Virus record (IMG/VR): IMGVR_UViG_2802429227_000005 | Coordinates: 1-16,099 of that record | DNA from: a virus | Lineage: Duplodnaviria > Heunggongvirae > Uroviricota > Caudoviricetes | Direction: 5' to 3' (one strand) | Length of the DNA: 16,099 bases | Part shown: positions 1-14,388 of the stretch, in pieces | How positions within the stretch are numbered: position 1 is the stretch's first letter | How the letters are laid out: every line of letters begins with the position of its first letter | Translations under genes and position numbers: made by a program | Notes under the pieces: generated by a model | The model's database searches: none | What the model was told of the DNA's origin: nothing | Seen by the model: the letters and a program-made list of their open reading frames with translations, nothing else

Positions 1-192
1 TCAGGAGCATTTCTGATTAACGCCACCGTTAAGAATCCACCCTTCAACAGCTTCACGAAGGTATGATTTGGGGTGGGTTCTGACTGGCTTCGGAAATCCG
101 TGCCGTTTGGTATAGTTCCAGATTGTCTGACGTGATGAAACACCGAGCTTGTTCATCACTTCTTTCTCAGGAATCAGGCTGGTATCGGTCAT
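1..192 (-). CDS. xis: Excisionase-like / AlpA-family small HTH DNA-binding protein (63 aa)
   Basis: Complete ORF in the six-frame track; small basic protein with an HTH-like core (LGVSSRQTIWNYTKRHGFPKP) typical of AlpA/Xis-type excisionases; sits at the left edge where an int-xis module is expected in a lambdoid prophage. Confidence 0.5.
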   Translation of the reverse strand: MTDTSLIPEKEVMNKLGVSSRQTIWNYTKRHGFPKPVRTHPKSYLREAVEGWILNGGVNQKCS

Positions 193-204
193 CTTAATTC
201 TCCA

Positions 205-232
205 GGCAAAAATAAACCGCCATATAGCGGCT
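205..232 (-). terminator. Rho-independent terminator candidate (short GC stem CCGC/GCGG followed by TTTATTTTT on the minus strand)
   Basis: Plus strand reads aaaaataaaccgccatatagcggc; on the minus strand this is a hairpin followed by a U-tract, downstream of the 293..508 ORF. The stem is short. Confidence 0.45.
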
Positions 233-292
233 CTATCAGATATGAACAGGCCTCATCGAGTGTGAGGCAGTGTGATTTCTTTATTTCCACTC

Positions 293-508
293 TTAATGTT
301 TGTCAGTGAATGGTTTCTCCATCTCCATTAATGCCTTATTCATCTCATTTCGTAACTCTATAGCCATCCTGACGGCTTCAACTTGTGCAGGATGTCGGTT
401 AATTGCTGGAGAATATCGTCGGGAGCGAAGGATTGAGAAAACAAAGATAATGCAAGCAACTATCTGAATTGCATTGCATGTTATTGATACAATGTTAATT
501 GCAGCCAT
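293..508 (-). CDS. Hypothetical small protein (71 aa), hydrophobic N-terminus, possible membrane protein
   Basis: ORF in the six-frame track; N-terminal hydrophobic stretch (IVSITCNAIQIVACIIFVFSIL); flanked by terminators on both sides. Confidence 0.4.
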   Translation of the reverse strand: MAAINIVSITCNAIQIVACIIFVFSILRSRRYSPAINRHPAQVEAVRMAIELRNEMNKALMEMEKPFTDKH

Positions 509-516
509 CTACTACC

Positions 517-540
517 CCCAAAAAAACCGCCATCAGGCGG
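517..540 (-). terminator. Rho-independent terminator (stem CCGCC/GGCGG, loop TGAT, then T7 on the minus strand)
   Basis: Plus strand aaaaaaaccgccatcaggcgg; perfect 5-bp GC stem plus U-tract on the minus strand; the stop codon of the 533..700 ORF lies in the loop. Confidence 0.6.
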
Positions 541-700
541 CTTGGTGTTCTTTCAGTTCTTCAATTCGAATATTGGTTACTTCTGCATGTGCTATCTGCG
601 CCCATATCATCCAGTGGTTATAGCAGTCATTGATATCCTCTGCTTCGATAACTCTGTCGAATGGCTCTCCATTCCATTCACCTGTGACTCGAAAGTGCAT
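533..700 (-). CDS. Hypothetical small protein (55 aa; below the ORF-track size cutoff)
   Basis: Manual translation of the minus strand: MHFRVTGEWNGEPFDRVIEAEDINDCYNHWMIWAQIAHAEVTNIRIEELKEHQAA; GGAG Shine-Dalgarno about 8 nt upstream of the ATG; ends inside a terminator hairpin. Confidence 0.4.
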   Translation of the reverse strand: MHFRVTGEWNGEPFDRVIEAEDINDCYNHWMIWAQIAHAEVTNIRIEELKEHQAA

Positions 701-740
701 TTATCATCTCCATAAAACAAAACCCGCCGTAGCGAGTTCA

Positions 741-768
741 GATAAAAGAAATCCCCGCGAGTGCGAGG
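741..768 (-). terminator. Rho-independent terminator candidate downstream of the 789..1088 ORF
   Basis: Minus strand reads CCTCGC-ACTC-GCGGGG (6-bp stem with one G-U pair) followed by ATTTCTTTTATC. Confidence 0.45.
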
Positions 769-788
769 ATAGTTACTTGTTCATATTA

Positions 789-1088
789 TTAATCGTCAAT
801 GTATTTTGAGCATTGTGGGCAATCATCAATCCCACAATACGATTCATATGCATCCTTTATTGCGTCGCGGGCTTCAGTAAGAGTATTGAATAAGTTGCAG
901 CTATTATCTTTTTGATATAGGTAAGTTCCTAATTTATAAGCAGAAGAAGCATCATTTCCGCTGTCTAAAATTACATCGTTATGGATTCTGCACCTTGCAA
1001 GAACTCCTGATCCCATAAGGGTCTGCATAGCCCATTGCTCTTGATCTTCACACAAATCATGAATGCTCATTTCAACACCTCTCTTCAC
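789..1088 (-). CDS. Hypothetical protein (99 aa), Cys-rich C-terminus (CGIDDCPQC)
   Basis: ORF in the six-frame track; preceded (1089..1184) by a markedly AT-rich intergenic stretch and followed by a terminator, i.e. it looks like an independent moron-like unit. Confidence 0.5.
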   Translation of the reverse strand: MKRGVEMSIHDLCEDQEQWAMQTLMGSGVLARCRIHNDVILDSGNDASSAYKLGTYLYQKDNSCNLFNTLTEARDAIKDAYESYCGIDDCPQCSKYIDD

Positions 1089-1184
1089 GTTTCACACACG
1101 TTAAGATTAACAGTGTTTTTACATGCTTTGGAAGATTTATTTTATAAAAACTCTTTTAATACAAATAGATATAATAGTTCACTA

Positions 1185-2009
1185 TTATAGCTCCTTTAAT
1201 CGAGGCGGTTCTGGTAGTGGCATCCAGTGTGACGGCTCACATACCCCCTCAACACCATTCATGTAAAAGAATTGAAATAACCCTTTACCTTTGTGAAACC
1301 CTACCATCTGCTCTTTTGTGTCTGAGCAATAAACCAAAACATCTTCTTCGTTCGGCATTCGCTCACTACAGCTTATCCAACCATCCGGAGTTACCGGATA
1401 GTTGCCATTCACAAGGTCAGATCGAACATATAGCGTGTCATCATGGTGCTGATTGTGGCTGCACCACGTTAATTCGCTTAACTCGCCATCTTCTGGCCAT
1501 ACTCCAGCCGTTTGCAGCCAGATATGGGCTGGCGCATCTTGGCAAGGTGTATTAACTGGCAACTTGTAAGTTTGGCTTACAGGTTCGGCACCATGAAGCA
1601 TGGCGTCGCTCCGCTCTATGCCATCCAGCGCGATTCGCAGTGCATGAATTGTGGTAGAGCTATCGTTTGGGGCTATTCCATATCGCTCGAATACAGCTAA
1701 ATGGTTGCGCATAATCTCAGGCGTAAGCTCTTTGTAAGCATAAGCAAGAGGCTCTGATGCATTATCCTGCACAACCGACGCAGGCGCGGCAGCATAAACA
1801 GGAATAACGTCCGCTTGCTCTTTATTGCTTTCATCCGTTAAAGCCCAGAATAATTTTCCAGCCGGATGTTTGAAAATATAAGCAACTGGTTCTGCTTCCA
1901 GCGATGCCAGTGCAATTCGTGCCAGTTCCATTTGTTCGCCACGGGTAAGCCCGTTTTCAAGCGGATTTTTAATGAACAATTCAATACGTTCTTTGGTAAT
2001 AGAATTCAT
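1185..2009 (-). CDS. Phage protein with a DUF551-like C-terminal domain (274 aa)
   Basis: C-terminal motif ...CEPSHWMPLPEPP matches the W-x-PLPEPP signature I recall for DUF551 prophage proteins; last gene of a translationally coupled leftward operon. Confidence 0.6.
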   Translation of the reverse strand: MNSITKERIELFIKNPLENGLTRGEQMELARIALASLEAEPVAYIFKHPAGKLFWALTDESNKEQADVIPVYAAAPASVVQDNASEPLAYAYKELTPEIMRNHLAVFERYGIAPNDSSTTIHALRIALDGIERSDAMLHGAEPVSQTYKLPVNTPCQDAPAHIWLQTAGVWPEDGELSELTWCSHNQHHDDTLYVRSDLVNGNYPVTPDGWISCSERMPNEEDVLVYCSDTKEQMVGFHKGKGLFQFFYMNGVEGVCEPSHWMPLPEPPRLKEL

Positions 2010-2010
2010 G

Positions 2011-2202
2011 CTATTTCACCTTAATCTCAACATTTCGCAGCTTTAGCTCTACTGGCAGGTCTGACTTTCCTGTTAATGCTAATGCGAGATTTTCTGGGGT
2101 AATGAGAGCAGTTATTGCTTTCCCCATTGCCAGACGAATAATTATTCGTATTTCGCGATCGTCACATGCTCCTGGTCGAACGATTGATATTTGTCCGTCC
2201 AT
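2011..2202 (-). CDS. Hypothetical small protein (63 aa)
   Basis: ORF in the six-frame track; its start is 1 nt from the upstream gene's end and its end 1 nt from the next gene's start, suggesting coupling. Confidence 0.45.
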   Translation of the reverse strand: MDGQISIVRPGACDDREIRIIIRLAMGKAITALITPENLALALTGKSDLPVELKLRNVEIKVK

Positions 2203-2203
2203 C

Positions 2204-2953
2204 TCACTCTCCTTTGATGCGAATGCCAGCGGCGCGGATTGCAGCGATGACCTCAGAAACTTTGTATGCCATTAGCGTTTGGTAATCCTCGTGAAAATCT
2301 GTTCGATGAAGCATGCTGCTACGTTCTGGGAGCGATATTTCCCGAGCATCCAGTTCCTTAACGCGTTCCTCCAGTTCGTAGACCCTGCATTGTTCTCTAT
2401 CATCAATCAGATATAACCCAAGACATTCGCTTTCTACCCAACCGCCAAAATCATGATCGTAACGCTCACATGAAAACTCACCGTCACCGTCCTTTGTTGG
2501 AATGGTGTAACTATCTAATGGGCCACCATATGTCGGCACATTTCCCAATGTTGGATGCTCAATCCACATGAAAAATGCACGTCCGGTTATTGGGCAAATA
2601 TCTGGCCGCCATTGGTTACGAACAGCCTTGGTTTCGGATAATTCTTCAGCGTGTTGTTTTACTTCCTCAAGCTCAACTCTCAGCTTCCCTACCGTTAGCG
2701 CAATATCCTCGTTCTCCTGATCGCGGCGTTTTATGTATTGCTGGTTTCTTTCCCGTTCATCCAGCAGCGCCAGCACGGTTTCTGGCCCTGCCAGAAGCTT
2801 GAAGGCGTTGAGCGCATCAATATCCACACCGTAATCTTTAAGTTCCTGTTCACTTAACAAATCATCATCAACTGGCAACATTAACAGGCGTTCCATTGCT
2901 GGAATTGCACGTTCCGCCGCCTCACGCAGTGCCTGGTAATTAATTTCGCTCAC
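2204..2953 (-). CDS. Hypothetical early-left (ea-region) protein, 249 aa, acidic coiled-coil-like N-terminus
   Basis: Long ORF with stop/start overlap to neighbours (2950..2953); position matches the ea/b2-type region of lambdoid phages; no family recognised with certainty. Confidence 0.55.
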   Translation of the reverse strand: MSEINYQALREAAERAIPAMERLLMLPVDDDLLSEQELKDYGVDIDALNAFKLLAGPETVLALLDERERNQQYIKRRDQENEDIALTVGKLRVELEEVKQHAEELSETKAVRNQWRPDICPITGRAFFMWIEHPTLGNVPTYGGPLDSYTIPTKDGDGEFSCERYDHDFGGWVESECLGLYLIDDREQCRVYELEERVKELDAREISLPERSSMLHRTDFHEDYQTLMAYKVSEVIAAIRAAGIRIKGE

Positions 2954-3450
2954 TGGTTGCCTCCTTTGCGAAGCTGGTCGGCGAACAAACGTACACCAGA
3001 CGCTTCACTGCGTAGAAACTTAACGGCATAATCAAAACCACCTCGTTCTGCGTCGTCTGCTGCGTTGTCGAGGTTATCTGCGTACATCTCTACCCCCTGC
3101 GCCCGTACTTCAGCCAGGAAAGCATCGGTGGCTGGGGTGTCTGATTGCAGAGACTTTGCGCGATAGTCATTCCACCCTCTTGCATACATGGGATTAACTT
3201 GCACTCCATCTTTTACGCAATATGCCTGCCCTCCACGGTTGATAACCTCAATTTCGCCCATAGCGCCAGACTTCAGCCCCGCATTCTCCGCCGCCAGCTC
3301 CGCGCACTTGGCCTCCGCTTCAGCAAATTTACGCACCAGATATTCAGCGTTTGTTTCGTTAACCTTTAGATCTCGTGGGATGCATTTACCTTTCAGAAAA
3401 CCATCCATCTCAATTAGTGACATTTGTTTCATTTCTTGCCACTCCGCCAC
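2950..3450 (-). CDS. Hypothetical early-left protein (166 aa from the GTG at 3450, or 160 aa from the ATG at 3432)
   Basis: ORF in the six-frame track; the start is ambiguous between GTG 3450 and an in-frame ATG at 3432 with GGAG upstream; overlaps the stop of the 3429..3593 small ORF. Confidence 0.5.
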
Positions 3451-3593
3451 ATCGCATTCAGATATTTGTTTTGATTCACTGAAGGAAAAGAATTTCTCTT
3501 AAGCAATTCCTCTCTCGATGGCATTGGCTTTACGCGTTGGCGAATAATCATTTCTGCCGGAAGAATGCCGGGATTGTATGCAAGTCCTCTCAT
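3429..3593 (-). CDS. Hypothetical small protein (54 aa; below the ORF-track cutoff)
   Basis: Manual translation: [54 protein letters not shown]; GAGGA Shine-Dalgarno 7 nt upstream of the ATG; fills the gap between flanking genes. Confidence 0.3.
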
Positions 3594-3609
3594 GGTAAAT
3601 TCCTCTTTG

Positions 3610-3924
3610 TTAATTTATTCGTATGCCTGCTCTTTCTTCATCGAGTTTTTTTAGCTTGTATCGCATAGCTCTTACTGAATAAATTGAGCGGCAGGTTGCA
3701 ATTGCTATTTCTTCTGCGGAGAACTTACCGAAAAGTGATACTTCGGCTCTTGTCCAGCGTCTTCCACGAAGTCGGCTAACAATGTCAGCGCCAATCCTTG
3801 TTGCTTTCGCCATTACTGCTTTTTCAGTCCTTCCCAGTTTTTCAGCGATAACTTCAACTGGCATTGTTGTCGCTACTTCGCGCAAGAAATCGACTTCCCA
3901 TTTCTCCCATGGAGTCTTTTTCAT
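3610..3924 (-). CDS. Hypothetical protein (104 aa) with two tandem W-x3-E...L repeats, possibly HTH/Myb-like DNA binding
   Basis: Internal repeat visible in the translation ([32 protein letters not shown] and [31 protein letters not shown]); immediately downstream of the Gp157-like gene. Confidence 0.5.
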
Positions 3925-3935
3925 AGGCGATACCG

Positions 3936-4424
3936 TTATTTGATAAGAAGTGAAGGTTTCCCAACTTTGAGTTGAGCGCCGGGGATATTTATTCCTGCTT
4001 TTAGTTGGTGTTTGATTGCCAGTTTGTCGGCTTTTATTGTTGTTTCAAACTCAACGTATTCTGGAGGAAGGGCGCTTGAGTCGATGATTTCTACAATTTC
4101 TGACGGTTTGCGGATTGTTACCTGGTGAATACCTGCTCGAATATTTTTCTTGCCAAACATTTCAAGCGATGACGCTATATATGATTTGATGCTGTCAATC
4201 TTATTTTGAATTACTGCAGCTCGCTCATTCAGTGACTTTGCCTCTTCCTTGAGGCGTTCGGCATAACCAGATTCATTTTTAATGACGGAAAGAAGTTGCT
4301 CTATTTTATCGGTAAATTCTCCTTCCATGCCTTCTATTGTGTCAGCAATCATCTCTGGTTCTAAATCTGAATCCATCAATTTTGCGTATTCATTGGCAAT
4401 TTCATACAGTTTGCTCACTGGCAA
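3936..4424 (-). CDS. Siphovirus Gp157-like protein (162 aa), recombination-associated partner often found next to RecT/Erf
   Basis: Coiled-coil N-terminus (LYEIANEYAKLMDSDLEPEMIADTIEGMEGEFTDKIEQL...) resembles the Gp157 family as I recall it; sits directly downstream of recT, overlapping its end. Confidence 0.5.
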   Translation of the reverse strand: MPVSKLYEIANEYAKLMDSDLEPEMIADTIEGMEGEFTDKIEQLLSVIKNESGYAERLKEEAKSLNERAAVIQNKIDSIKSYIASSLEMFGKKNIRAGIHQVTIRKPSEIVEIIDSSALPPEYVEFETTIKADKLAIKHQLKAGINIPGAQLKVGKPSLLIK

Positions 4425-5304
4425 CCTCCAGTTTCGCTTTGCATTCTATGTAAATGGCTTGTACGTTCTGCTGCAATTTCATTCCAGATGTCAGGCGATA
4501 TGCTTCTGCAAAATATCGCTTCAAATCATCCATGTTTTCTGCCTGAGCCATTTCATCACAAAGAAGTTGTGCTTTATCCATTATTTCCTGCTGGCGTTTC
4601 CGTTCATCTTCGCGGATATCTTCCTCTGATTTGTGCGGCATAACTGGTTCCTGATGCATACCTTCATCTTCGTTAAGCAGGTGAATGGCATTATCCAGTC
4701 GCTGGGCTTTAGGCCAGTATTTGCTGGCGCGTTTAACTATTGTTTTACGCGCCATCTCTTCCCAGAATGTTTTCCACGGTCCATTCTTTGCCTTGCTCGT
4801 TGCTTCCACAGCTTTAATTTCTGCCAGACTCATTTCTTCAGTCAGGTAGTCACCATCTGCTGTTTTAACCGTGCAATAACCACCAACAATAGAGCCTCGC
4901 TCACCAAATGCGTTGTATTTGTGGGTTGGTGCTGAATCAAGGCCATTTGATTCATAGGTGTCGTTTGAGTACACCAGTTTGCATTGCCCCCACTTAATTG
5001 ATCCTGTCGACTGTGCAAGGTGAAGTAATCCCATATAGCTGATATCAAGGCACACCATGCCGTCGCGCGGAACCAGATAAGCAAGTTTGCTGGCTGGGTT
5101 TAAGGTGATGCCGATCGCCGCAACATTGATGATGGCGTTCTGTGCGCTGGTTGGATTTGCCAGTGCCGTTTTAGCCAGGTAATCATTTTTCTGGAAATAC
5201 TGAATTGCAAACTGGCTTTCCTTAGCCCATGTCACCGTCTGTTCAGTCAATGCTCCGCAGAATAACTGCTCTTGCTGTTTAACGAATTCAACGATATTGC
5301 TCAT
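4402..5304 (-). CDS. recT: RecT-family single-strand annealing protein (300 aa)
   Basis: Motif NGPWKTFWEEMARKTIVKRASKYWP matches the conserved RecT core (E. coli RecT NGPWVTHWEEMAKKTAIRRLFKYLP); in the bet position of the early-left operon. Confidence 0.85.
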   Translation of the reverse strand: MSNIVEFVKQQEQLFCGALTEQTVTWAKESQFAIQYFQKNDYLAKTALANPTSAQNAIINVAAIGITLNPASKLAYLVPRDGMVCLDISYMGLLHLAQSTGSIKWGQCKLVYSNDTYESNGLDSAPTHKYNAFGERGSIVGGYCTVKTADGDYLTEEMSLAEIKAVEATSKAKNGPWKTFWEEMARKTIVKRASKYWPKAQRLDNAIHLLNEDEGMHQEPVMPHKSEEDIREDERKRQQEIMDKAQLLCDEMAQAENMDDLKRYFAEAYRLTSGMKLQQNVQAIYIECKAKLEVASEQTV

Positions 5305-5612
5305 GCTGCTTCTCCAAAAATGTGTCTGCGTTTGAATATTGCGAAGGCATATTCAGCCTTAACTCTTTCGGTTATTGCATCCCAGAACCATTCAGCGGCT
5401 TTTTCCTGATAGTTACAGTCATCATCTTCCAGCCAGTCGATAGCGTCCTTAGTGTGTTCATCTGGTTTATATGAGCGAAGCATTTCGCTTATTGGGTCGC
5501 AACGTTTGCAGAGGCGATCAACTTCACTGTTGATTCGTTCGTAATCTTCATCAGTAAAACTTGCGATTATTTGCGATATTTCACGCTTATCATTCAGAGT
5601 CAGAATCATCAT
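5301..5612 (-). CDS. Hypothetical acidic protein (103 aa) in the gam/arf position upstream of recT
   Basis: ORF with an AGGAG Shine-Dalgarno; ATGA stop/start overlap with recT; no resemblance to lambda Gam that I can see. Confidence 0.5.
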   Translation of the reverse strand: MMILTLNDKREISQIIASFTDEDYERINSEVDRLCKRCDPISEMLRSYKPDEHTKDAIDWLEDDDCNYQEKAAEWFWDAITERVKAEYAFAIFKRRHIFGEAA

Positions 5613-5693
5613 CTTTCTCCTGTTCTTTGTGCTGATTGAGCATTTTGTTCATCTGACGAATGAATTCTTCGTCTGACCAGTTATCTGTAAAAC

Positions 5694-5846
5694 TCATTTC
5701 CTGCGATACCACGGAAGGTTGATAGCTGATTTCATCGCTTTATTTGCTTCAAGCCACATTTTGGAATCACCAATAAATCTGGCTATTACTGCTTTGTTCT
5801 GTGCAGCACGAAGCATCTGGTGATTAATGGCTATTTCATTGCGCAT
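5694..5846 (-). CDS. Small hypothetical protein (50 aa) in the kil position
   Basis: Manual translation: MRNEIAINHQMLRAAQNKAVIARFIGDSKMWLEANKAMKSAINLPWYRRK; start overlaps the 3' end of the CIII-like gene; between cIII-like and the recombination genes as kil is in lambda. Confidence 0.3.
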   Translation of the reverse strand: MRNEIAINHQMLRAAQNKAVIARFIGDSKMWLEANKAMKSAINLPWYRRK

Positions 5847-5965
5847 AACGCCTCCAGTTGTTTCTTTGCTGCTCTGATTAATTGTTTAACTCGGCGTGAT
5901 AATTCAGATTCGTGCGGGTAGAAAGCGGACATGACGCCGCTACCCGCGAGCTGAAAGTGCATCAT
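5831..5965 (-). CDS. cIII: CIII-like protein (44 aa; putative FtsH inhibitor that would stabilise CII)
   Basis: Translation MMHFQLAGSGVMSAFYPHESELSRRVKQLIRAAKKQLEALCAMK aligns in pattern with lambda CIII (...AGWPVAGCPSESLLERITRKLRDGWKRL...); GGAG 6 nt upstream of the ATG-ATG. The ORF-track entry 5831..6070 has a longer, probably spurious N-terminal extension. Confidence 0.5.
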   Translation of the reverse strand: MMHFQLAGSGVMSAFYPHESELSRRVKQLIRAAKKQLEALCAMK

Positions 5966-6025
5966 GGGTAACTCCTTATATTTGATTGCATAACGAAAAC
6001 GCCTCGAGTGAAGCGTTATTGGTAT

Positions 6026-6055
6026 GCATATAAAAAGGCCCTCACATTGGAGGGC
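6026..6055 (-). terminator. Rho-independent terminator candidate in the PL operon (between ral and cIII-like)
   Basis: Minus strand GCCCTC-CAATGT-GAGGGC (6-bp stem) followed by CTTTTTATAT. Confidence 0.5.
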
Positions 6056-6191
6056 AAAGAAGATTTCCAATAATCAGAACAAGTCGGCTCCTGTTTAGTT
6101 ACGAGCGACATTGCTCCGTGTATTCACTCGTTGGAATGAATACACAGTGCAGTGTTTATTCTGTTGTTTATGCCAAAAATAAAGGCCACCA

Positions 6192-6392
6192 TCAGGCAGC
6201 CTTGTTATTCTGTTTACCAAGTTCTCTGGCAATCATTGCCGTAGTTCGTATTGCCCATTTATCGACATATTTCCCATCCTCCATTACAGGAAACATTTCT
6301 TCAGGCTTAACCATGCATTCCGATTGCAGCTTGCATCAATTGCATCGCTTGAATTGTCCACACCATTGATTTTTATCAATAGTCGTAGTCAT
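6192..6392 (-). pseudogene. ral: ral-like restriction-alleviation gene interrupted by an in-frame TGA at codon 19 (6336..6338)
   Basis: Minus-strand frame reads MTTTIDKNQWCGQFKRCN-TGA-CKLQSECMVKPEEMFPVMEDGKYVDKWAIRTTAMIARELGKQNNKAA: 66 codons in one frame with a single internal stop. The family assignment is from memory of lambda Ral. Confidence 0.5.
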
Positions 6393-6462
6393 ACGGATAG
6401 TCCTGGTATTGTTCCATCACATCCTGAGGATGCTCTTCGAACTCTTCAAATTCTTCTTCCAT
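6376..6462 (-). CDS. Very small acidic ORF (28 aa), orf28-like, overlapping the ral start
   Basis: Manual translation MEEEFEEFEEHPQDVMEQYQDYPYDYDY; AAGGTGA Shine-Dalgarno 5 nt upstream; its stop overlaps the ral ATG (6390..6392); position matches the small ORF between sieB/N and ral in lambda. Confidence 0.4.
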   Translation of the reverse strand: MEEEFEEFEEHPQDVMEQYQDYPYDYDY

Positions 6463-6608
6463 ATATCACCTTAAATAGTGGATTGCGGTAGTAAAGATTG
6501 TGCCTGTCTTTTAACCACATCAGGCTCGGTGGTTCTCGTGTACCCCTACAGCGAGAAATCGGATAAACTCTATTCACCCCCTACAGAGAGAATGATGGAG
6601 ATTCACCG

Positions 6609-7148
6609 ATGAGTAACTGGTGGCAGGAACTATTACGTTTCTTCCTGCGTGGTCTTACGCTACAACAGTTAATTCATATGCTTATTATTTTAATTGCCTT
6701 GATAATAATCACCCCTGCATCAATTAAAGAGTGGGTAGATATAAGGAACCCAGAAATACTTCCAGATCACTGGATGTATTACGCAATGCTTTTGTGTATC
6801 AGTTATGTTCTGAACAGGGTGATGGAGTTTATATTTCTGGCATCTTCAGACAGATATAAAAAATATCTCAGTAAGAGAGATGAGGCTAAAGTAATTGTGG
6901 AGACTGAGCGCCTGTTCAATTCTCTGAGTATTCAGGAAAAAGAGGTTTTAGCATTTGCTGTTATGGCAAATAACAAAATCGTACTTAAGCACGGCGATCC
7001 GGTCGCTTTATCTCTTATGAGAAAAGGCCTTCTCCATCGCTCAGGTGTGACTTACAGCGCGTCAGGTAAAGAGAAATTTGTTATACCTGACGTCTGGTTC
7101 CATGAGTGTTATATGCGCTTTGCTGGTAAAGCTGATGAGCTAATTTAG
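6609..7148 (+). CDS. sieB: Superinfection-exclusion protein B-like membrane protein (179 aa)
   Basis: N-terminal transmembrane segment (LIHMLIILIALIIITPA); rightward gene embedded in the leftward PL operon and ending 21 bp from the 3' end of N, as sieB does in lambda. Assignment is positional and topological, not by sequence identity. Confidence 0.45.
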   Translation: MSNWWQELLRFFLRGLTLQQLIHMLIILIALIIITPASIKEWVDIRNPEILPDHWMYYAMLLCISYVLNRVMEFIFLASSDRYKKYLSKRDEAKVIVETERLFNSLSIQEKEVLAFAVMANNKIVLKHGDPVALSLMRKGLLHRSGVTYSASGKEKFVIPDVWFHECYMRFAGKADELI

Positions 7149-7169
7149 TTCCTCGACGGCGGGGGATCG

Positions 7170-7442
7170 TCACCTCGCTGTCAGTTGTTTTGATTTCCGG
7201 TAGCCTGCCGCGTAAATGGCTACGTTTGGCAGGCAAATACTTCCACTGCATTCATCTGCCTTCTTGCAGCAAAGGCTTCCTAGTGATGCTGCTTTGTCTG
7301 CTCTGACGCAACCAGAGAGCTTTAGCGCAATTTTTCGCGCCAGTGCTTCATTACTGCGTCGCTCGGCAATAAGTTCTGCTCTGCGAGCTTTGTAGCGGCT
7401 TTTTGCCGTACCTTTGGATTCTTTCCAGACAATGGTTACCAT
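7170..7442 (-). CDS. N: N-like transcription antiterminator with an arginine-rich motif, phage-21 type (90 aa from the ATG at 7442)
   Basis: Arg-rich N-terminal segment GTAKSRYKARRAELIAERR matches the phi21 N RNA-binding peptide as I recall it; C-terminus YAAGYRKSKQLTAR resembles P22 gp24; GGAGA Shine-Dalgarno before the ATG at 7442; a nut site lies upstream. Confidence 0.7.
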   Translation of the reverse strand: MVTIVWKESKGTAKSRYKARRAELIAERRSNEALARKIALKLSGCVRADKAASLGSLCCKKADECSGSICLPNVAIYAAGYRKSKQLTAR

Positions 7443-7553
7443 GATGGTCTCCTTTAAGTGGCTTTGGCGCATGACGCGTCGAGGTGCTTATCTTCTCGAT
7501 CGCTGTCTTGCAGCTGCAATTCGCGCCATCCCCAAAACCACTCAAGTTCTGGT

Positions 7554-7593
7554 CTCAACGGTTAGGTTGAGAGTCCGTCGATGTTAAAGAGCC
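7554..7593 (-). promoter_or_regulatory. nutL site: boxA (GGCTCTTTAA) followed by a boxB hairpin (UCUCAAC-CUAACC-GUUGAGA)
   Basis: Minus strand reads GGCTCTTTAACATCGACGGACTCTCAACCTAACCGTTGAGA between PL and N; the boxB loop CUAACC matches the one in nutR. Confidence 0.6.
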
Positions 7594-7638
7594 TGCCAAT
7601 CTGTTCCGTTTGGCTTCCAGCGTCCTGCTGATGGCTTA

Positions 7639-7692
7639 AATTTAAGACTTCTTAATTTATTGGTCAAGTGCATTTTTGAAGAAAACTTAATT
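7639..7692 (-). promoter_or_regulatory. PL promoter (-35 TTGACC at 7662..7667, -10 TAAATT at 7639..7644, minus strand) with two OL operators of P22 type
   Basis: Operator-like TTAAG-N4-CTTAA palindromes at 7642..7655 and TGAAG-N4-CTTAA at 7677..7690, same pattern as the OR sites; 17-bp promoter spacer. Confidence 0.5.
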
Positions 7693-7729
7693 TTATGGAC
7701 GTTAATTTAGTTTGTCTTTGATTTTTAAC

Positions 7730-7756
7730 GGGAAATAAAAAAGGGGCGAAAGCCCC
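7730..7756 (-). terminator. Rho-independent terminator directly after the c2 stop codon (GGGGC-GAAA-GCCCC then T-run)
   Basis: Minus strand GGGGCTTTCGCCCC followed by TTTTTTATTTCC; the stem starts about 1 nt after the c2 stop. Confidence 0.7.
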
Positions 7757-8407
7757 TTAAGGAAGGTTTGCTAGCTTGGCATCAACGACAACGCCAATGA
7801 TTTTACAGTTCCCATTGATTTCAATCATTGGGTATTGTGGATTGAGTGGTTTCAGGAATTTTCTACCGGCATCAATAACTAACTTTTTGAATGTCGCCTC
7901 GTTTTCTCCTTCAAGTTTGGCGACTACCAGCTTTCCATTACGTGGTTCGACTTCTGGGTCGACGAGAATAATCATCCCCTCAGGAATACTCAGTCCTGCC
8001 GGGGCAGTCATTGAATCGCCTTTAACGTCGAGCCAAAAAGAGTCTTCAGAACAATCTACCGTTGTGTCGTACCAGTTATCTATTGCACGCCTATGATATG
8101 GCTCTACAGCTTCCATCCAACATCCTGCGCTTACCCAACTAATTAGAGGATACGAACCTCTTGGATCATGCCTGCTGTGATAGGCAATGTTTGAAAGACT
8201 ATCCTCTCCTTTCAACAGGTAATCAGGGGAGCACTGCAAAGCCTTGGCTAAGGCCAATAGGTTTTCGCCATTGGGCTCAGTTTCAGATCGCTCCCACTGG
8301 GAAATAGCAACATTAGACACGCCAACCATCTTGCCAAGGGCAGCCTGCCTAATCTTGAGTTCTTTTCTGCGAGCGCGAATACGCTCACCCATCAGTTGTG
8401 TATTCAT
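7757..8407 (-). CDS. c2: Phage repressor, P22 C2 type (HTH_XRE N-terminal domain plus LexA/S24-like C-terminal domain; 216 aa)
   Basis: Translation MNTQLMGERIRARRKELKIRQAALGKMVGVSNVAISQWERSETEP... matches the P22 c2 repressor almost residue for residue as I recall it; C-terminal GDSM and K (Ser-Lys dyad) self-cleavage motifs are present. Confidence 0.9.
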   Translation of the reverse strand: MNTQLMGERIRARRKELKIRQAALGKMVGVSNVAISQWERSETEPNGENLLALAKALQCSPDYLLKGEDSLSNIAYHSRHDPRGSYPLISWVSAGCWMEAVEPYHRRAIDNWYDTTVDCSEDSFWLDVKGDSMTAPAGLSIPEGMIILVDPEVEPRNGKLVVAKLEGENEATFKKLVIDAGRKFLKPLNPQYPMIEINGNCKIIGVVVDAKLANLP

Positions 8408-8473
8408 AGTTAAGACATCTTAAATAAACTTGACTTAAGATTCCTTTGGTGGATAATTTAAGTGTTCTTTAAT
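8408..8473 (+). promoter_or_regulatory. OR operator triplet with PR (-35 TTGACT at 8430..8435, -10 GATAAT at 8453..8458) and divergent PRM
   Basis: Three TTAAG-N4-CTT(A/T)(A/G) palindromes at 8410..8423, 8435..8448 and 8458..8471, spaced about 23-25 bp apart, overlapping PR; OR3 abuts the c2 start codon. Confidence 0.7.
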
Positions 8474-8487
8474 TTCGGAGCGAGTCT

Positions 8488-8673
8488 ATGTACAAAAAAG
8501 ATGTTATTGACCACTTCGGAACCCAGCGTGCTGTTGCTAAAGCACTAGGCATTAGCGATGCAGCAGTCTCTCAGTGGAAAGAAGTTATCCCAGAGAAAGA
8601 CGCCTATCGATTGGAAATCGTTACAGCTGGCGCCCTGAAGTATCAAGAAAGTGCTTACCGCCAAGCGGCATAA
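8488..8673 (+). CDS. cro: Cro repressor, P22 type (61 aa)
   Basis: Translation MYKKDVIDHFGTQRAVAKALGISDAAVSQWKEVIPEKDAYRLEIVTAGALKYQESAYRQAA matches P22 Cro as I recall it; GGAG Shine-Dalgarno; divergent from c2 across OR. Confidence 0.85.
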   Translation: MYKKDVIDHFGTQRAVAKALGISDAAVSQWKEVIPEKDAYRLEIVTAGALKYQESAYRQAA

Positions 8674-8680
8674 GCAAATT

Positions 8681-8720
8681 GCTCTTTAACAGTTCTGGCC
8701 TTTCACCTCTAACCGGGTGA
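8681..8720 (+). promoter_or_regulatory. nutR site: boxA (GCTCTTTAACA) plus a phi21-type boxB hairpin (TCACC-TCTAACC-GGGTGA)
   Basis: Read directly downstream of cro; boxB shares the CUAACC loop with nutL. Confidence 0.65.
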
Positions 8721-8778
8721 GCAAACATCAGCGGCAAATCCATTGGGTGTGCCGCTATAACTCAATATCAATATAGGA

Positions 8779-8811
8779 AAATTAACAAATGGCACAAGCA
8801 AGCTACAGCAA
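8779..8811 (-). promoter_or_regulatory. pRE-like CII-dependent promoter: TTGC-N6-TTGC (8798..8811) then 13 nt then -10 TAATTT (8779..8784), leftward
   Basis: Minus strand GCTTGCTGTAGCTTGC-TTGTGCCATTTGT-TAATTT; the TTGC repeats lie in the first codons of the cII-like gene, as in lambda pRE. Confidence 0.55.
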
Positions 8812-9085
8812 GCCAACACAGCGAGAAATTGATCGCGCTGAAACTGATTTACTCATCAACCTGTCAACGCTTACCCAGCGCGGTCTGGCAAAGATGATTG
8901 GCTGTCATGAATCGAAGATAAGCAGAACGGACTGGAGATTTATTGCTTCGGTCTTGTGTGCTTTCGGAATGGCATCAGACATCAGTCCGATTAGCAGGGC
9001 TTTTAAGTATGCGCTTGATGAAATCACAAAGAAAAAATCCCCGGTGGCCGCCGGGGACTCTAAGCAAATTGATATGCAATTCTGA
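8789..9085 (+). CDS. c1: CII-like transcriptional activator (P22 c1 type; 98 aa)
   Basis: Pattern similarity to lambda CII: ...ESKISRTDWRF... against ...KSQISRWKRDW..., and C-terminus TKKKSPVAAGDSKQIDMQF against TNKKRPAATERSEQIQMEF; position after cro and nutR. Confidence 0.75.
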   Translation: MAQASYSKPTQREIDRAETDLLINLSTLTQRGLAKMIGCHESKISRTDWRFIASVLCAFGMASDISPISRAFKYALDEITKKKSPVAAGDSKQIDMQF

Positions 9086-9108
9086 GGGAATTACTGGATC
9101 AATCCACA
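9031..9108 (-). ncRNA. OOP-like antisense RNA candidate (about 78 nt), with an extended -10 promoter and a terminator inside the 3' end of the cII-like gene
   Basis: Minus-strand hairpin CCCCGG-CGGCCA-CCGGGG (plus 9039..9056) followed by ATTTTTTC; about 77 nt upstream on the minus strand is TGtCATAAT (plus 9115..9123). Geometry mirrors lambda pO/OOP. Confidence 0.5.
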
Positions 9109-9117
9109 GGAGTCATT

Positions 9118-9279
9118 ATGACAAAACGTCGTAAGAAATACCAGGAAAAAGAAGAGATTCGACACCCTGATTCACCTGAGGGATTAGTGGTAGCCGCAGC
9201 AAATAACAGGGCGTTCGCAGAGCGCCTTGTTGGTGTTTACAGACTAGCCAAAGCAGGAGTGAAACATGGGCGTCGTTAA
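9118..9279 (+). CDS. Hypothetical small basic protein (53 aa; below the ORF-track cutoff) between c1 and the O-like gene
   Basis: Manual translation [53 protein letters not shown]; strong AGGAG Shine-Dalgarno 5 nt upstream of the ATG; overlaps the O-like start by 14 nt in another frame. Confidence 0.3.
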   Translation: MTKRRKKYQEKEEIRHPDSPEGLVVAAANNRAFAERLVGVYRLAKAGVKHGRR

Positions 9280-10096
9280 GTTAGCTGATTACAGGCCTCA
9301 ACTGGAGGTCGTGGAGCATCGCGTGGCAGAACTCGAAGATGGCTACACTCGGACTGCAAACACACTGTTAGAAGCCGCCATGCTTTCTGGACTTACTCTA
9401 CATCAGTTACTGATTGTTATGGCTGTGTGGCGCAAGACATACGGTTACAACAAAAAAATAGATTGGATCGGAAACGAACAGTTCGCTGAACTCACTGGCA
9501 TGGCACCAACCAAATGCTCTACCGCCAAAAACGAGCTTATCAGAATGGGAGTTCTCATTCAGGTGGGGCGTCAAGTTGGTATGAATACAAACATTTCCGA
9601 GTGGAAAACGAAAGTTAACGGATTCGGTAAAACATTTACCAATTCGGTAAAACAAACCTTCACCAAATCGGTAAAAAGCAATTTACCGAATCAGTCAAAC
9701 ACAAAAGACAATATACAAAAGACAATAAATACAAATACCCCCTTACCCCCTAACGGGGGCGGCGATGGGCAGGTTAAACCTGAACGTCGCAAGGCAGAAC
9801 GAATCGACTACGAATCCTTCCTGAACGCCTACAACACCGAAGTCGGTGACAGACTTCCACATGCTGTTGCGGTCAACGAGAAACGCAAACGCCGCCTGAA
9901 GAAAATCATCCCGCAACTGAAAACGCCAAACGTGGACGGTTTCAGAGCGTATGTCAGGGCGTTTGTGCATCAGGCCAAGCCGTTTTACTTCGGAGACAAC
10001 GACACGGGCTGGACGGCAGATTTTGATTACCTGCTGAGGGAAGATTCGTTAACGGGAGTGCGGGAAGGGAAGTTTGCAGACAGGGGGATTGCATGA
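9266..10096 (+). CDS. O: Replication initiator, lambda O-like N-terminal domain (P22 gene 18 type; 276 aa)
   Basis: N-terminal region aligns with lambda O ([18 protein letters not shown]...WRKTYGYNK...NISEW against VADLDDGYARLSNMLLEA...LRKTYGWNK...NISEW); iterons inside the gene. Confidence 0.8.
9622..9737. repeat. Origin of replication inside the O-like gene: ATTCGGTAAAAC iterons followed by an AT-rich stretch
   Basis: Direct repeats ATTCGGTAAAAC at 9622..9633 and 9642..9653, degenerate AATCGGTAAAAA at 9666..9677, inverted TTTACCGAAT at 9682..9691, then AT-rich 9700..9737. Confidence 0.6.
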
Positions 10097-11469
10097 AACA
10101 GGATATCGAAGCGAGCGTTATCGGTGGCTTGCTGATTGGTGGATTAACACCAACTGCCAGTGACGTTCTGGCAACGCTGGAGCCGGAAGCGTTTTCAATT
10201 CCGCTCTACCGGAAAGCCTTCGAGGTTATCCGCAAGCAGGCGAGAAACAGAAACCTAATCGACGCGCTGATGGTTGCCGAGGCGTGCGGAGAGGAGCATT
10301 TCACGTCAATCCTGATGACCAGCAAAAACTGCCCGAGTGCCGCAAACCTGAAGGGATATGCCGGAATGGTCGCGGATAACTATCACCGCCGTCTGGTGCT
10401 GGAAATCATGGATGAAATGCGTGAACCAATTCAGAGCGGAACCATCGACGCATCGAGTCAGGCGATGGATGAACTTGTAAAGCGTCTTTCAGCCATCAGA
10501 AAGCCACGTGACGAGGTTAAACCTGTACGGTTAGGGGAAATCATCACCGACTACACTGACACGCTTGACAGGCGTCTGAGGAACGGAGAAGAGTCCGATA
10601 CCCTGAAGACCGGAATCGAAGAACTTGATGCCATCACCGGAGGGATGAACGCGGAAGACCTTGTGATAATCGCTGCTCGTCCTGGTATGGGGAAAACCGA
10701 ACTGGCGCTGAAGATTGCCGAAGGCGTTGCAAGCCGCGTTATTCCTGGTTCTGACGTCCGGCGCGGAGTGTTGATTTTCTCGATGGAAATGAGCGCATTG
10801 CAGATTGCAGAGCGAAGCATTGCCAACGCCGGGAGGATGCCGGTTAGCGTGCTGCGAAATCCTGCTTCGATGGATGACGAAGGCTGGGCGCGCGTTGCTA
10901 ACGGCATGAGTCAGCTTGCAGATTTGGATGTATGGGTAGTCGATGCCTCGCGGTTATCGGTCGAAGAAATACGCTCAATCGCAGAACGGCACAAACAGGA
11001 AAATCCAAACCTGTCACTCATCATGGTGGATTATCTTGGCCTGATTGAGAAGCCGAAAGCAGATCGCAACGACCTCGCAATTGCTCACATCTCCGGAAGC
11101 CTGAAGGCGATGGCGAAAGACCTGAAAACACCGGTTATCCCCCTGAGTCAGCTTTCGCGCGATGTTGAGAAGCGACCAAACAAACGCCCGACAAACGCAG
11201 ATTTGCGTGATTCAGGAAGCATTGAACAGGACGCAGACTCAATCATCATGCTCTATCGGGAAGCGGTATATGACGAGAACAGTAGCGCCGCGCCATTTGC
11301 TGAAATCATCGTGACGAAAAACCGTTTTGGCTCACTTGGTACGGTTTACCAGCGGTTCTGCAACGGACACTTTGTTGCATGTGACCAGGATGAAGCCAGA
11401 CAGATTTGCACAACATCAAATGCACCCGCTGCACGTGGCAGACGATATGCACAAGGGGCTGACGTATGA
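10093..11469 (+). CDS. Replicative DNA helicase, DnaB-like (P22 gene 12 type; 458 aa)
   Basis: Walker A ([15 protein letters not shown]), DnaB-type architecture and length; ATGA overlap with the O-like stop. Confidence 0.85.
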
Positions 11470-11496
11470 CCATCTACATCACTGAGCTAATAACAG

Positions 11497-11526
11497 GCCT
11501 GCTGGTAATCGCAGGCTTTTTTATTT
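11497..11526 (+). terminator. Rho-independent terminator after the replication genes (tR2-like): GCCTGC-TGGTAATC-GCAGGC then TTTTTTATTT
   Basis: Perfect 6-bp GC-rich stem with a T-run on the plus strand, directly downstream of the helicase stop. Confidence 0.7.
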
Positions 11527-11541
11527 GGGGGAGAGTAAATC

Positions 11542-11748
11542 GTGGCTGAGTTTATGCTCGTCGCACTCAAATGCGTTGGCGTTGGATGGATTCTTCTGAC
11601 GTTTTTTATTGTTCTGCATGGCTACATTCGTCTTGTTAATGACGGTAAAGAGCCATGGTGTACGTTGTTTTGCGCTGCATTTGTCTGGGTGATTATCGGT
11701 GTTATGCCTGTCGCTGTAGCAAAAATGGCGTGGCGTTTTTTGAGTTGA
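11542..11748 (+). CDS. Hypothetical small membrane protein (68 aa, two predicted TM helices), GTG start
   Basis: ORF in the six-frame track; GGGGGAGAG Shine-Dalgarno 7 nt upstream of the GTG; two hydrophobic helices (LVALKCVGVGWILLTFFIVL and FCAAFVWVIIGVMPVAVA). Confidence 0.4.
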   Translation: MAEFMLVALKCVGVGWILLTFFIVLHGYIRLVNDGKEPWCTLFCAAFVWVIIGVMPVAVAKMAWRFLS

Positions 11749-11765
11749 ACTGAGGATAAGTATCG

Positions 11766-12080
11766 ATGGACGAATCAAGAAAGCAGTTTGAAGAAAGTTG
11801 GTTGCGACGTGGGGGCGAATCCTCAGACCTTATCCGTTACCCTGAAAATCACCATGAAATTGGCAGCGGTAATATTGGTGGTCAATACGTGATGGTCGAT
11901 GTTCAAGGCCACTGGCAAACGTGGCAGGCATCGCGAGCAGCTATTGAAATTGAGTTGCAAAAGCCAAAGAAAGGCCCACTTCCCGGTGATTATCACATTG
12001 GCTATGACTCAGGTGCAGAATCACAATACGAAAGCGATGTAGAGGCCATCCGCGCTGCTGGAGTCAAAGTGAAGGAGTAA
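11766..12080 (+). CDS. Hypothetical acidic protein (104 aa), nin-region accessory gene
   Basis: ORF in the six-frame track with plausible Shine-Dalgarno; immediately followed by ninB; no family recognised. Confidence 0.5.
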   Translation: MDESRKQFEESWLRRGGESSDLIRYPENHHEIGSGNIGGQYVMVDVQGHWQTWQASRAAIEIELQKPKKGPLPGDYHIGYDSGAESQYESDVEAIRAAGVKVKE

Positions 12081-12082
12081 CG

Positions 12083-12493
12083 ATGAAGCAAACAATCTTC
12101 CTCCGAACTAAGCAACAACAGCAAGCTGCAATAAATGCCATCCTCGCAACACCACTCGATAAAGACAAGCCAGTCACCATCCGCATTACTGACTACAAGC
12201 GCAACCTTGACCAGAACGCAAAATTTCACGCGATGGTCGCAGATATCGCCAGGCAAGTTCAGTGGCGCGATAAATGGTTAAAACCAGAACAATGGAAGGT
12301 TTTGTTGATCAGCGGTCATGCAGTGGCTACAAAGCAGGAAGCTGATGTTTTGCCCGGCCTTGAAGGCGAATACGTCAACATTCGCGAAAGCAGCGCGCAG
12401 ATGAGCGTGAAGCGTATGGCAAGTCTGATCGAGTACACAACAGCATGGGCTATTGGTCAGGGTGTCAGATTTACCGACAGGAGGTACGAATGA
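12083..12493 (+). CDS. ninB: NinB (Orf-family recombination mediator; 136 aa)
   Basis: Similarity to lambda NinB ([30 protein letters not shown] against VVTIQERNRSLDQNRKLWACLGDVSRQVEW); GAAGGAG Shine-Dalgarno. Confidence 0.8.
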
Positions 12494-12672
12494 GACGACA
12501 GCGACGAAGTTTCACCGACATCATCTGCGAAAACTGCAAATACCTTCCAACGAAACGCTCCAGAAATAAACGCAAGCCAATCCCAAAAGAATCTGACGTA
12601 AAAACCTTCAACTACACGGCTCACCTGTGGGATATCCGGTGGCTTAGAGAACGTGCGAGGAAAACAAGGTGA
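12490..12672 (+). CDS. ninE: NinE (60 aa)
   Basis: Translation [60 protein letters not shown] closely matches lambda NinE as I recall it; ATGA overlap with the ninB stop. The ORF-track entry starts earlier (12445) at a probably non-native start. Confidence 0.75.
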
Positions 12673-12839
12673 TTGACCAAAATCGAAGTTACGAACAAGG
12701 AAGTGTCGAGCGAGCTTTAACGTGCGCTAACTGCGGTCAGAAGCTGCATGTGCTGGAAGTTCACGTGTGTGAAGCGTGCTGCGCAGAACTGATGAGCGAT
12801 CCGAATAGCTCAATGTACGAGGAAGAAGACGATGAATGA
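12669..12839 (+). CDS. ninF: NinF (56 aa, GTG start; below the ORF-track cutoff)
   Basis: Manual translation [56 protein letters not shown], a Cys-rich zinc-ribbon-like protein matching lambda NinF as I recall it; GTGA overlap with the ninE stop. Confidence 0.65.
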
Positions 12840-14203: not shown

Positions 14204-14388
14204 ACGCCACAATTCAAACGATACCAGAGCTTCTTATCCAGACACGAGGCAATCAGACCGAAGTGGCGAGGATGCTTTCCTGCGCAAGAGGAACAGTGCT
14301 CAAGTACAACCGAGACAGCAAAGGCGAGCGTCACGTAATAGTTAACGGCGTCCTGATGGTCACGCCAGGCAAAAAGGGAAGACGATGA
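14200..14388 (+). CDS. ninH: NinH-like small HTH protein (62 aa)
   Basis: TIPELLIQTRGNQTEVARMLSCARGTVLKYNRDSKGERHVIVNGVLMV against lambda NinH TIPDMLVEAYGNQTEVARRLKCSRGTVRKYVDDKDGKMHAIVNDVLMV. Confidence 0.7.
   Translation: MNATIQTIPELLIQTRGNQTEVARMLSCARGTVLKYNRDSKGERHVIVNGVLMVTPGKKGRR

Follow-up and report, generated by a model that had tools for sequence, protein, structure and literature searches.

A probable accessory segment of the pL operon in a P22/HK620-like lambdoid prophage

What is encoded by the six small, closely packed genes that follow the recombination genes in the early region of a lambdoid prophage, and how does this set of genes compare with those of known phages? We addressed this question for the 16,099 nucleotides (nt) at positions 1 to 16,099 of the IMG/VR record IMGVR_UViG_2802429227_000005 (Caudoviricetes), hereafter the window, which represents the early region of a lambdoid prophage. 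The six genes lie on the minus strand at positions 1185-3924 and are called the block below. An earlier note, made from the sequence letters alone, had described them as a translationally coupled early-left operon of unknown proteins. Our analyses point to the block being the accessory ("ea"/exo-xis) segment of the pL operon in a P22/HK620-like lambdoid prophage, built by module shuffling from known Escherichia/Salmonella prophage genes, and we put the probability of this reading at roughly 0.75.

Position, content and coding status of the block

The block was compared gene by gene with the annotated genomes of phages HK620 (NC_002730) and P22. Five genes of the window repeat the order and orientation of hkaI-hkaH-hkaG-hkaF-hkaE, which in HK620 are situated between the recombination genes and xis/int, and one extra gene, encoding a 104-residue protein, precedes this run in the window. 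Identities to the window proteins were 100% for hkaI, 60% for hkaH, 42% for hkaG and 100% for hkaF. The N-terminal 49 residues of hkaE were 78% identical to the 274-residue protein of the window, and both proteins have a DUF551 domain. Relative to HK620, other sequence has replaced hkaH in its middle, hkaG throughout the C-terminal half and hkaE over most of its length. The upstream genes also differ, as HK620 has Abc2 with Sak4- and SSB-type recombination genes where the window has RecT, Gp157 and the 104-residue protein, a predicted helix-turn-helix (HTH) protein. The P22 ea region (orf56, eaE, eaD, eaI, eaA) contains genes at the same positions and of the same families as those of the window, eaI being excepted by its sequence. 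The P22 identities were 75% for orf56 (DUF2737), 34% for EaE, 71% over 45 residues for EaD and 32% over the full length for EaA. P22 has orf45 and eaF as extras, and it has Abc1 and Abc2 in the place of the 104-residue protein.

The leftward genes of the window are N, SieB (on the other strand), cIII, kil, a gene for a 103-residue protein, RecT and Gp157, and then the block, downstream of which are ea8.5-like, lambda-orf55-like and excisionase-like genes. The rightward genes encode a cI-type repressor, Cro, CII, O and a DnaB-type helicase, followed by a nin-like region with YbcO and RusA, then Q and a holin-like open reading frame (ORF). The block is therefore, as had been proposed, a minus-strand run directly downstream of the recombination genes RecT and Gp157, inside an early-left operon that has N, cIII and kil further upstream. 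With N to Gp157 on one side and ea8.5/xis on the other, it represents the distal pL operon, the equivalent of the lambda exo-xis or P22 "ea" region. The earlier description of an "ea/b-type" region can be kept for its first half only; the block does not correspond to the lambda b region.

From one prophage to another, the block varies greatly. We sampled 80 viral loci anchored on the DUF2737 gene and 80 (the most similar) anchored on the gene of the 104-residue protein. Counting only loci with enough flanking DNA, there were ~40 arrangements of the tested segments among 62 DUF2737-anchored loci and 44 among 59 loci anchored on the 104-residue gene. A scan of genome contigs with DUF2737 gave only 7 loci. 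No record spanning at least 80% of positions 1100-4000 was present among the phage records and complete E. coli genomes searched, and the exact gene combination of the window is held by none of them. The best coverage was 58-60%, with several pieces at 95-98% identity. Breakpoints also fall within genes, for example nt 1-114 and 292-483 of the gene of the 160-residue protein are ~96% identical to HK620 with an unmatched middle. The region is in this sense ordinary: it belongs to a hypervariable type of accessory region that has been known for long, it combines its pieces in a new mosaic, and each gene has close public prophage relatives.

The proteins had been called unknown and without assigned function. 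They correspond to the named P22 "ea", HK620 hkaI-hkaE and lambda exo-xis block, belong in part to three Pfam families and have 91-100% identical public proteins, with thousands of database homologues for the 160-residue and DUF551 proteins. The second statement is out of date at the level of families, as Ea22 is pro-lysogenic and Oad2 inhibits P2 OLD. What stands is that remote-homology searches matched none of the six to a housekeeping phage function. All six belong to phage families in PHROGs, five of them without a functional label and one labelled a transcriptional regulator. NCBIfam and PADLOC searches gave no matches for any of the six, PDB sequence searches with the 249-, 274-, 104- and 166-residue proteins gave nothing meaningful, and Rfam and tRNA scans of the whole window were empty. 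Nothing relevant was found in literature searches on DUF2737 or the hka genes, on GcrA/Myb proteins in prophages, or on exo-xis with anti-defence.

The six minus-strand ORFs are present exactly where they had been reported, and they are real, selected protein-coding genes with minimal spacing. Pooled ratios of nonsynonymous to synonymous polymorphism (pN/pS), obtained from 16-107 distinct homologous segments per gene, were 0.14-0.22 in the annotated frame of all six genes and 1.0-5.5 in the two shifted frames. The earlier note had allowed for ORFs that are not conserved as coding; purifying selection was found in all six. This bears on a quite different explanation of the block, that the prophage is defective and the ORFs in the block are filler, in decay or without function, whether of chance origin or left over from pseudogenes. 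Truncated or frameshifted copies do occur in some related prophages (in E. coli HCP5S3_I4 the DUF551 gene is partial, and in O145:H28 an IS3 disrupts abc2), and we know of no studied phage (P22, or lambda for ea/exo-xis) in which any of the six genes is essential. The filler explanation is opposed by the difference between in-frame and out-of-frame pN/pS (at least 1.0 out of frame) in every gene, by the intact frames, Shine-Dalgarno sequences and coupled stop-start junctions, and by strong Pfam and PHROG matches with thousands of database homologues. Codon-level conservation essentially refutes it, and we consider it extremely improbable.

The genes had been said to overlap or abut, which is the case at four of the five internal junctions. 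At the fifth, 16 nt separate the stop codon of the 104-residue gene from the DUF2737 ATG, with the Shine-Dalgarno sequence AAGAGGA. The DUF2737 stop codon and the EaE-family gene form an ATGA overlap if the latter starts at ATG 3432, or a 22-nt overlap if it starts at GTG 3450. The EaE-family and Ea22-like genes are joined by a GTGA overlap at 2950-2953, with AAAGGAGG ahead of the GTG start, and 1-nt spacers precede the 63-residue gene (2203) and the DUF551 gene (2010). Ahead of the block, a junction of 11 nt between the Gp157 stop codon and the ATG of the 104-residue gene was read from the sequence. Spacing of this kind fits translational coupling, and the chain would be largely coupled as well as co-transcribed; it weighs against both proposals that the spacing is all they draw on. 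The block has no convincing internal terminator or promoter on its own strand: a terminator scan of the minus strand at 1185-3924 found a single minimal hairpin with a 5-bp stem (1902-1885, within the DUF551 gene), and a promoter scan of the same strand found no promoter-like site. From established lambdoid biology, the block would be transcribed within the N-antiterminated pL transcript and give delayed-early products.

Stronger terminator-like hairpins were noted past the block on the minus strand, at 770-751 and 739-720, just after the stop codon of the ea8.5-like gene, and another at 214-233, upstream of the excisionase-like gene. N-modified polymerase would presumably pass through those at 720-770 and 214-233. 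In HK620, a terminator named tL3 is annotated inside hkaI. The window counterpart, at 3488-3500 (minus strand) in the DUF2737 gene, is AAGAGAAATTCTTTTCC, and the terminator scan did not flag it.

Table 1. Genes of the block and its nearest neighbours, with positions in the window
Feature	Position	Strand	Basis
RecT	4402-5304	-	Pfam RecT 2.5e-33
Gp157 / Mu-Gam-like	3936-4424	-	Sipho_Gp157 4e-37; PHROG 253 "Mu Gam-like end protection"
104-residue protein gene	3610..3924	-	ORF list; predicted tandem GcrA/Myb-like HTH, PHROG 11492 / PHROG 323
DUF2737 gene, 54 residues	3429..3593	-	Pfam PF10930; = HK620 hkaI
EaE/hkaH-family gene, 160 residues (probable start)	2950..3432	-	PHROG 614; = HK620 hkaH
Ead/Ea22-like gene, 249 residues, GTG start	2204..2953	-	Pfam PF13935; = HK620 hkaG
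63-residue protein gene	2011..2202	-	PHROG 1222; = HK620 hkaF
EaA-type DUF551 gene, 274 residues	1185..2009	-	Pfam PF04448; = HK620 hkaE
ea8.5-like gene	789..1070	-	PF20735 1.1e-15; 41% identical to lambda Ea8.5, aligned from Met7

The DUF2737 gene and its EaE-family partner

The DUF2737 protein matched its Pfam family over residues 1-52 (model positions 1-52 of 53) with 107.7 bits and E = 2.6e-31, relative to a gathering threshold of 25 bits. In addition to its identity with HK620 hkaI and its resemblance to P22 orf56, it is 96% identical to HK446 gp28 and has a counterpart, gp38, in HK97. The gene is strongly conserved, with a pN/pS of 0.14 and 96-100% identity across HK620, HK446 and the viral loci.

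The next gene had been placed at 2950..3450. The gene itself is real; its start is probably ATG 3432, which gives 160 residues, and not GTG 3450, 18 nt further upstream, which gives 166. This is because 116 of the 120 best homologues are 160 residues long (one has the 166-residue form) and because hkaH and HK446 gp27 align from that methionine. A GGAG is present 9 nt upstream of the ATG. The 160-residue protein matched PHROG 614 at 1e-54, aligned with HK620 hkaH from Met7 of the listed form, and showed its 34% identity to P22 EaE at E = 2.4e-9. A homologue from Escherichia marmotae was 100% identical. The match to HK446 gp27, also known as Oad2, had an E-value of 1e-37 and 41% identity. On sequence grounds, membership of the 160-residue protein in the Oad2/P22 EaE family is established.

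The DUF2737 and EaE-family proteins are a conserved pair. The first 36 residues of the EaE family follow DUF2737 in 78 of the 80 DUF2737-anchored loci at a median identity of 97%, and the DUF2737 gene is followed by an overlapping EaE-family gene in HK446 and HK620 alike. The rest of the EaE-family protein had a median identity of 38-44% across the viral loci, reaching at least 90% in one locus only. The same pattern was evident in the comparison with HK446, in which gp27 comes directly after the 96%-identical DUF2737 gene with a stop-start overlap, as in the window. The first 36 residues of gp27 are near-identical to those of the 160-residue protein and two motifs are common to both, one of them DQLRKGGNQ, whereas the central and C-terminal segments differ.

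The relationship to gp27 is of interest with regard to function. P2 OLD is an abortive-infection tRNase that is activated on RecBCD inhibition, and HK446 escapes it via Oad2, which binds OLD directly, blocks tetramer activation and is enough for inhibition on its own (bioRxiv 10.64898/2026.07.10.737580, a July 2026 preprint). The same preprint relates Oad2 to P22 EaE and describes fusions of Oad2, in some phages, with an HNH nuclease or with an EaD/Ea22 protein. A 378-residue family, PHROG 14548, matched both the 160-residue and the Ea22-like proteins of the window, which agrees with the reported fusions and links two adjacent genes that overlap by GTGA. We hypothesize that the 160-residue protein would directly bind and inhibit an abortive-infection nuclease of the OLD family (ABC-ATPase/TOPRIM), or a comparable sensor that responds to perturbed DNA-end processing. 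Such a nuclease would be triggered by the phage's own DNA-end-protecting recombination functions, and the variable C-terminal part of the protein would set the specificity of the inhibitor. The proposal is tentative, and in our judgement falls somewhat short of an even chance.

Three points weigh against it. The 41% identity to Oad2 comes with 32% gaps, and the similarity is concentrated in the N-terminus and a few short motifs. A homologue in HK75 that is 54% identical to Oad2 was inactive on P2 OLD (bioRxiv 10.64898/2026.07.10.737580) and, as this homologue is the closer of the two, neither the activity of Oad2 nor its target can be transferred to the 160-residue protein. Finally, the conserved N-terminus of the EaE family could merely be a recombination linker.

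We also noted a 40-residue ORF at 5590-5712 (minus strand), between kil and the gene of the 103-residue protein, whose first 21 residues are 76% identical to HK446 gp33 and whose remainder differs. HK446 gp33 has been identified as a trigger of the P2 OLD nuclease (bioRxiv 10.64898/2026.07.10.737580). A search on Oad1 showed it to be a vibriophage protein without relationship to Oad2.

The 104-residue protein and the Abc2 slot

The 104-residue protein is predicted to consist of two tandem GcrA/Myb-like three-helix HTH repeats, at residues ~6-45 and ~56-95. It matched PHROG 11492 and PHROG 323, the latter described as "transcriptional regulator, D5-like". An exhaustive phmmer search returned 859 relatives, many of them long and with up to 10 consecutive matching units of ~45 residues. 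These units score as Pfam Myb_DNA-binding (2e-41) and more weakly as GcrA and sigma-70 region 4, and relatives of ~150 residues have a third copy of the repeat. A hidden Markov model (HMM) built from 20 Myb-like units found residues 6-45 at E = 3.9e-15 and gave repeat 2 only -0.8 bits with HMMER. In profile-profile comparison (hhalign), the Myb-like repeat profile aligned with repeat 2 in register at E = 3.9e-7 and 93% probability, with a 4-residue deletion, and repeat 1 aligned with repeat 2 over 37 columns in register at E = 7.5e-5. The AlphaFold2 (AF2) model had a predicted local distance difference test (pLDDT) score of 86 and showed two three-helix bundles (~90 each) joined by a flexible linker, with helices at residues 8-17/23-30/34-44 and 59-66/70-77/81-99. 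Direct alignment of the two halves gave a score of 18 against a shuffled mean of 21, that is, no signal of duplication. The internal duplication with paired motifs of DNA-binding type that had been suspected is thus borne out at the profile and AF2-structure levels only.

The closest structural matches to the model were DNA-binding HTH domains, namely the GcrA DNA-binding domain (DBD), Tc3 and Myb. The likeness to the GcrA DBD and Myb/SANT lies in the three-helix HTH predicted in each half, and in the many-copy relatives that score as Myb_DNA-binding and GcrA. Unlike GcrA, the protein lacks the sigma70-interacting C-terminal half, and its second repeat is four residues shorter and strongly diverged.

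The genomic neighbors of this gene separate it from the rest of the block. In the loci anchored on it, Gp157 was upstream in 80/80, RecT was present in 79/80, DUF2737 was next in 79/80, and Abc2 was found in 0/80. In the DUF2737-anchored loci, Abc2 was upstream in 79/80 and the 104-residue gene was found in 0/80. The linkage to RecT-Gp157 and the exclusion of Abc2 indicate a boundary gene of certain recombination modules, situated where Erf- and Sak4-type modules have Abc2. The earlier note had counted the gene as part of the variable block, a view we abandon in favor of its linkage to the RecT-Gp157 module. Most likely, the protein would support that module by binding either DNA or a partner protein.

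Several observations count against these proposals. A Foldseek search of the PDB with the model gave nothing significant, and the protein on its own falls below every Pfam threshold. The 80 loci behind the linkage to Gp157 are those of greatest similarity and may have diverged recently from a common ancestor, and in the more distant Salmonella phage SEN22 a homologue of the 104-residue protein follows a different module, with a PD-(D/E)XK exonuclease. The SEN22 gene upstream of that homologue was considered as a Gp157 relative and rejected.

An identity with P22 Abc1 was also examined and rejected: BLASTP found no match at E<=10, and P22 was absent from the tblastn matches among 50,697 phage records. 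A homologue 98% identical to the 104-residue protein in phage Gally (OV696608, 4388-4702) is annotated "Anti-RecBCD protein 1, similar to P22 Abc1", a label that is unsupported by sequence comparison. That annotation nevertheless belongs to the case for a different role, in which the protein would be an equivalent of P22 Abc1/Abc2 that acts against RecBCD or as a recombination accessory factor, and not a DNA-binding regulator. The gene is in the exact Abc2 slot between the recombinase genes and DUF2737, and the two genes are mutually exclusive in the loci sampled (0/80 and 0/80). SANT/Myb-type folds are also able to mediate protein-protein contacts. Set against these points are the lack of any sequence similarity to P22 Abc1 or Abc2, the absence of P22 from the tblastn matches, and nearest structural matches that are DNA-binding HTH domains. 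The replacement by position could also simply reflect an inherited recombination module. We regard the Abc-equivalent role as unlikely.

The Ea22-like and DUF551 proteins and the block as a whole

The Ea22-like protein matched PF13935 over residues 2-108 (100.6 bits, E = 1.4e-28, gathering threshold 27 bits), and its residues 1-107 were 55% identical to residues 1-84 of lambda Ea22, which lacks a 23-residue N-terminal insertion present in the window protein. The GTG start and the last 8 residues (AGIRIKGE) are identical in the two, and the N-terminus and coiled coil are common to both, whereas the C-terminal region at ~109-240 of the window protein is unrelated. In BLASTP with lambda Ea22 only residues 1-107 and the last 17 residues aligned, so the region of the lambda C-terminal domain (CTD) solved as 8DSX was left unmatched, and a search of PDB sequences at E<=1, including 8DSX, gave no match. 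An E. coli O145:H28 prophage has a gene 98% identical to that of the window, as do Stx2c-converting phages. The Ea22 proteins of lambda and of Shiga toxin (Stx) phages favor lysogeny, and form tetramers that have a coiled coil at their center and acidic CTDs that can be interchanged, the CTD of variant V2 being DUF551 (PMC7093339, PMC10834534). Like the Stx-phage variants V1-V3, the window protein has a conserved N-terminal part with a swapped CTD; unlike V2, the window has its DUF551 domain on a separate protein, two genes downstream. By analogy, the Ea22-like protein is probably an oligomeric coiled-coil scaffold with a swapped CTD and would bias infection towards lysogeny. A point against the latter is that the pro-lysogenic phenotype may not be transferable to this protein.

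The 63-residue protein belongs to phrog_1222 (1.9e-39), is the protein identical to HK620 hkaF, and is encoded by a gene with a pN/pS of 0.20 that is sporadic, occurring in 9/80 viral loci in each of the two samples. P22 EaI has the same position and an unrelated sequence, and we therefore rejected an identity between the two.

The 274-residue protein ends in the DUF551 motif, as had been noticed: PF04448 matched residues 210-269 with 68.4 bits and E = 1e-18 (threshold 22 bits), and HWMPLPEPP forms residues 261-269. In 27 homologues the ends of the domain (1185-1400, minus strand), GWISCSERMP and HWMPLPEPP, are near-invariant, and the ~40 residues between them are swapped for unrelated sequences of differing length, a pattern that either the exchange of cassettes or diversifying selection could produce. 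For the whole protein, the best homologue in the databases is only 91% identical. An AF2 model from the 27-sequence alignment had a pLDDT of 35.6, and no fold was deduced from it. The DUF551 protein YfdS of the E. coli element CPS-53 has been linked to peroxide/oxidative-stress tolerance and, with YfdQ and YfdR, to inhibition of replication initiation (PMC4776307).

These properties of the Ea22-like and DUF551 proteins are relevant to a further explanation, that the block serves only the choice between lysis and lysogeny and the physiology of the host, with a pro-lysogenic Ea22 and pro-lytic small ORFs beside it, and has no role in anti-defence. In lambda and Stx phages, the exo-xis region has been described in this way (PMC7093339, PMC3824215, PMC10834534). 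An Ea22-family N-terminal domain is present in the block, ea8.5 and lambda orf55 homologues lie directly downstream of it, and the links of YfdS to stress tolerance and replication initiation (PMC4776307) would suit such a function. On the other hand, a counterpart in lambda exo-xis exists for just one of the six genes, the EaE family has a member with demonstrated anti-OLD activity, and extreme C-terminal variability beside conserved N-termini is more in keeping with an arms race than with a conserved regulatory role. In this exclusive form the explanation seems to us somewhat unlikely; lysis-lysogeny and anti-defence roles are not mutually exclusive.

The block could also be a modular counter-defence arsenal mounted on the recombination module, with the 104-residue protein as an unrecognised functional replacement of Abc2 in RecT-Gp157-type modules. 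Conserved terminal "handles" would then be paired with hypervariable target-binding parts in the Oad2-family protein, and perhaps in the Ea22-like and DUF551 proteins as well. Their targets would be OLD-family or other abortive-infection systems that sense DNA ends, which the phage's RecT/Gp157 would trigger. We consider this unlikely, and prefer the reading of the block as a shuffled accessory segment of the pL operon.

Other features of the window were observed around the block. An AT-rich non-coding gap at 1089-1184 separates the DUF551 stop codon from the ea8.5-like gene, and no other sizeable spacer occurs in this part of the operon. Its length is ~96 nt if the ea8.5-like gene is taken from the listed GTG and ~115 nt if it is taken from the ATG matching lambda Ea8.5. 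The gap, in which the scan detected no promoter-like site, may be a mosaic junction. A 55-residue ORF at 533-700 (minus strand) is near-identical to lambda orf55 (lambdap35, NP_597778), which makes the xis-proximal end lambda-like and the rest P22/HK620-like. Kil (5697-5846, minus strand) and CIII (5834-6013, minus strand) are 100% and 97% identical, respectively, to the HK446 proteins, and a listed 79-residue ORF with a TTG start (5831-6070) is probably an over-extended CIII. The superinfection-exclusion gene SieB (6609-7148, plus strand; PF14163, 3e-20) is situated between N and cIII, as in P22 and HK620. In the nin-like region, a Rha/KilAC-type antirepressor gene (12832-13554, plus strand) is followed by the YbcO and RusA nuclease genes and then by Q.

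A hypervariable accessory region is well known from P22-like and lambdoid prophages, and the block is a routine case of it, of value mainly for annotation. Published names (hkaI-hkaE, EaE, EaD/Ea22, EaA) are now attached to its hypothetical genes, and useful additions are the link to Oad2, the 104-residue tandem HTH protein that alternates with Abc2, and a corrected start codon. A tandem HTH protein that is tied to RecT-Gp157 and exclusive with Abc2 suggests an uncharacterised accessory factor of that recombination system. The 160-residue protein is distantly related to Oad2, to date the sole inhibitor known for the P2 OLD nuclease, and the EaE family, with its conserved N-terminus and hypervariable remainder, offers a natural set of proteins with which inhibitor specificity towards OLD-family defences could be mapped.

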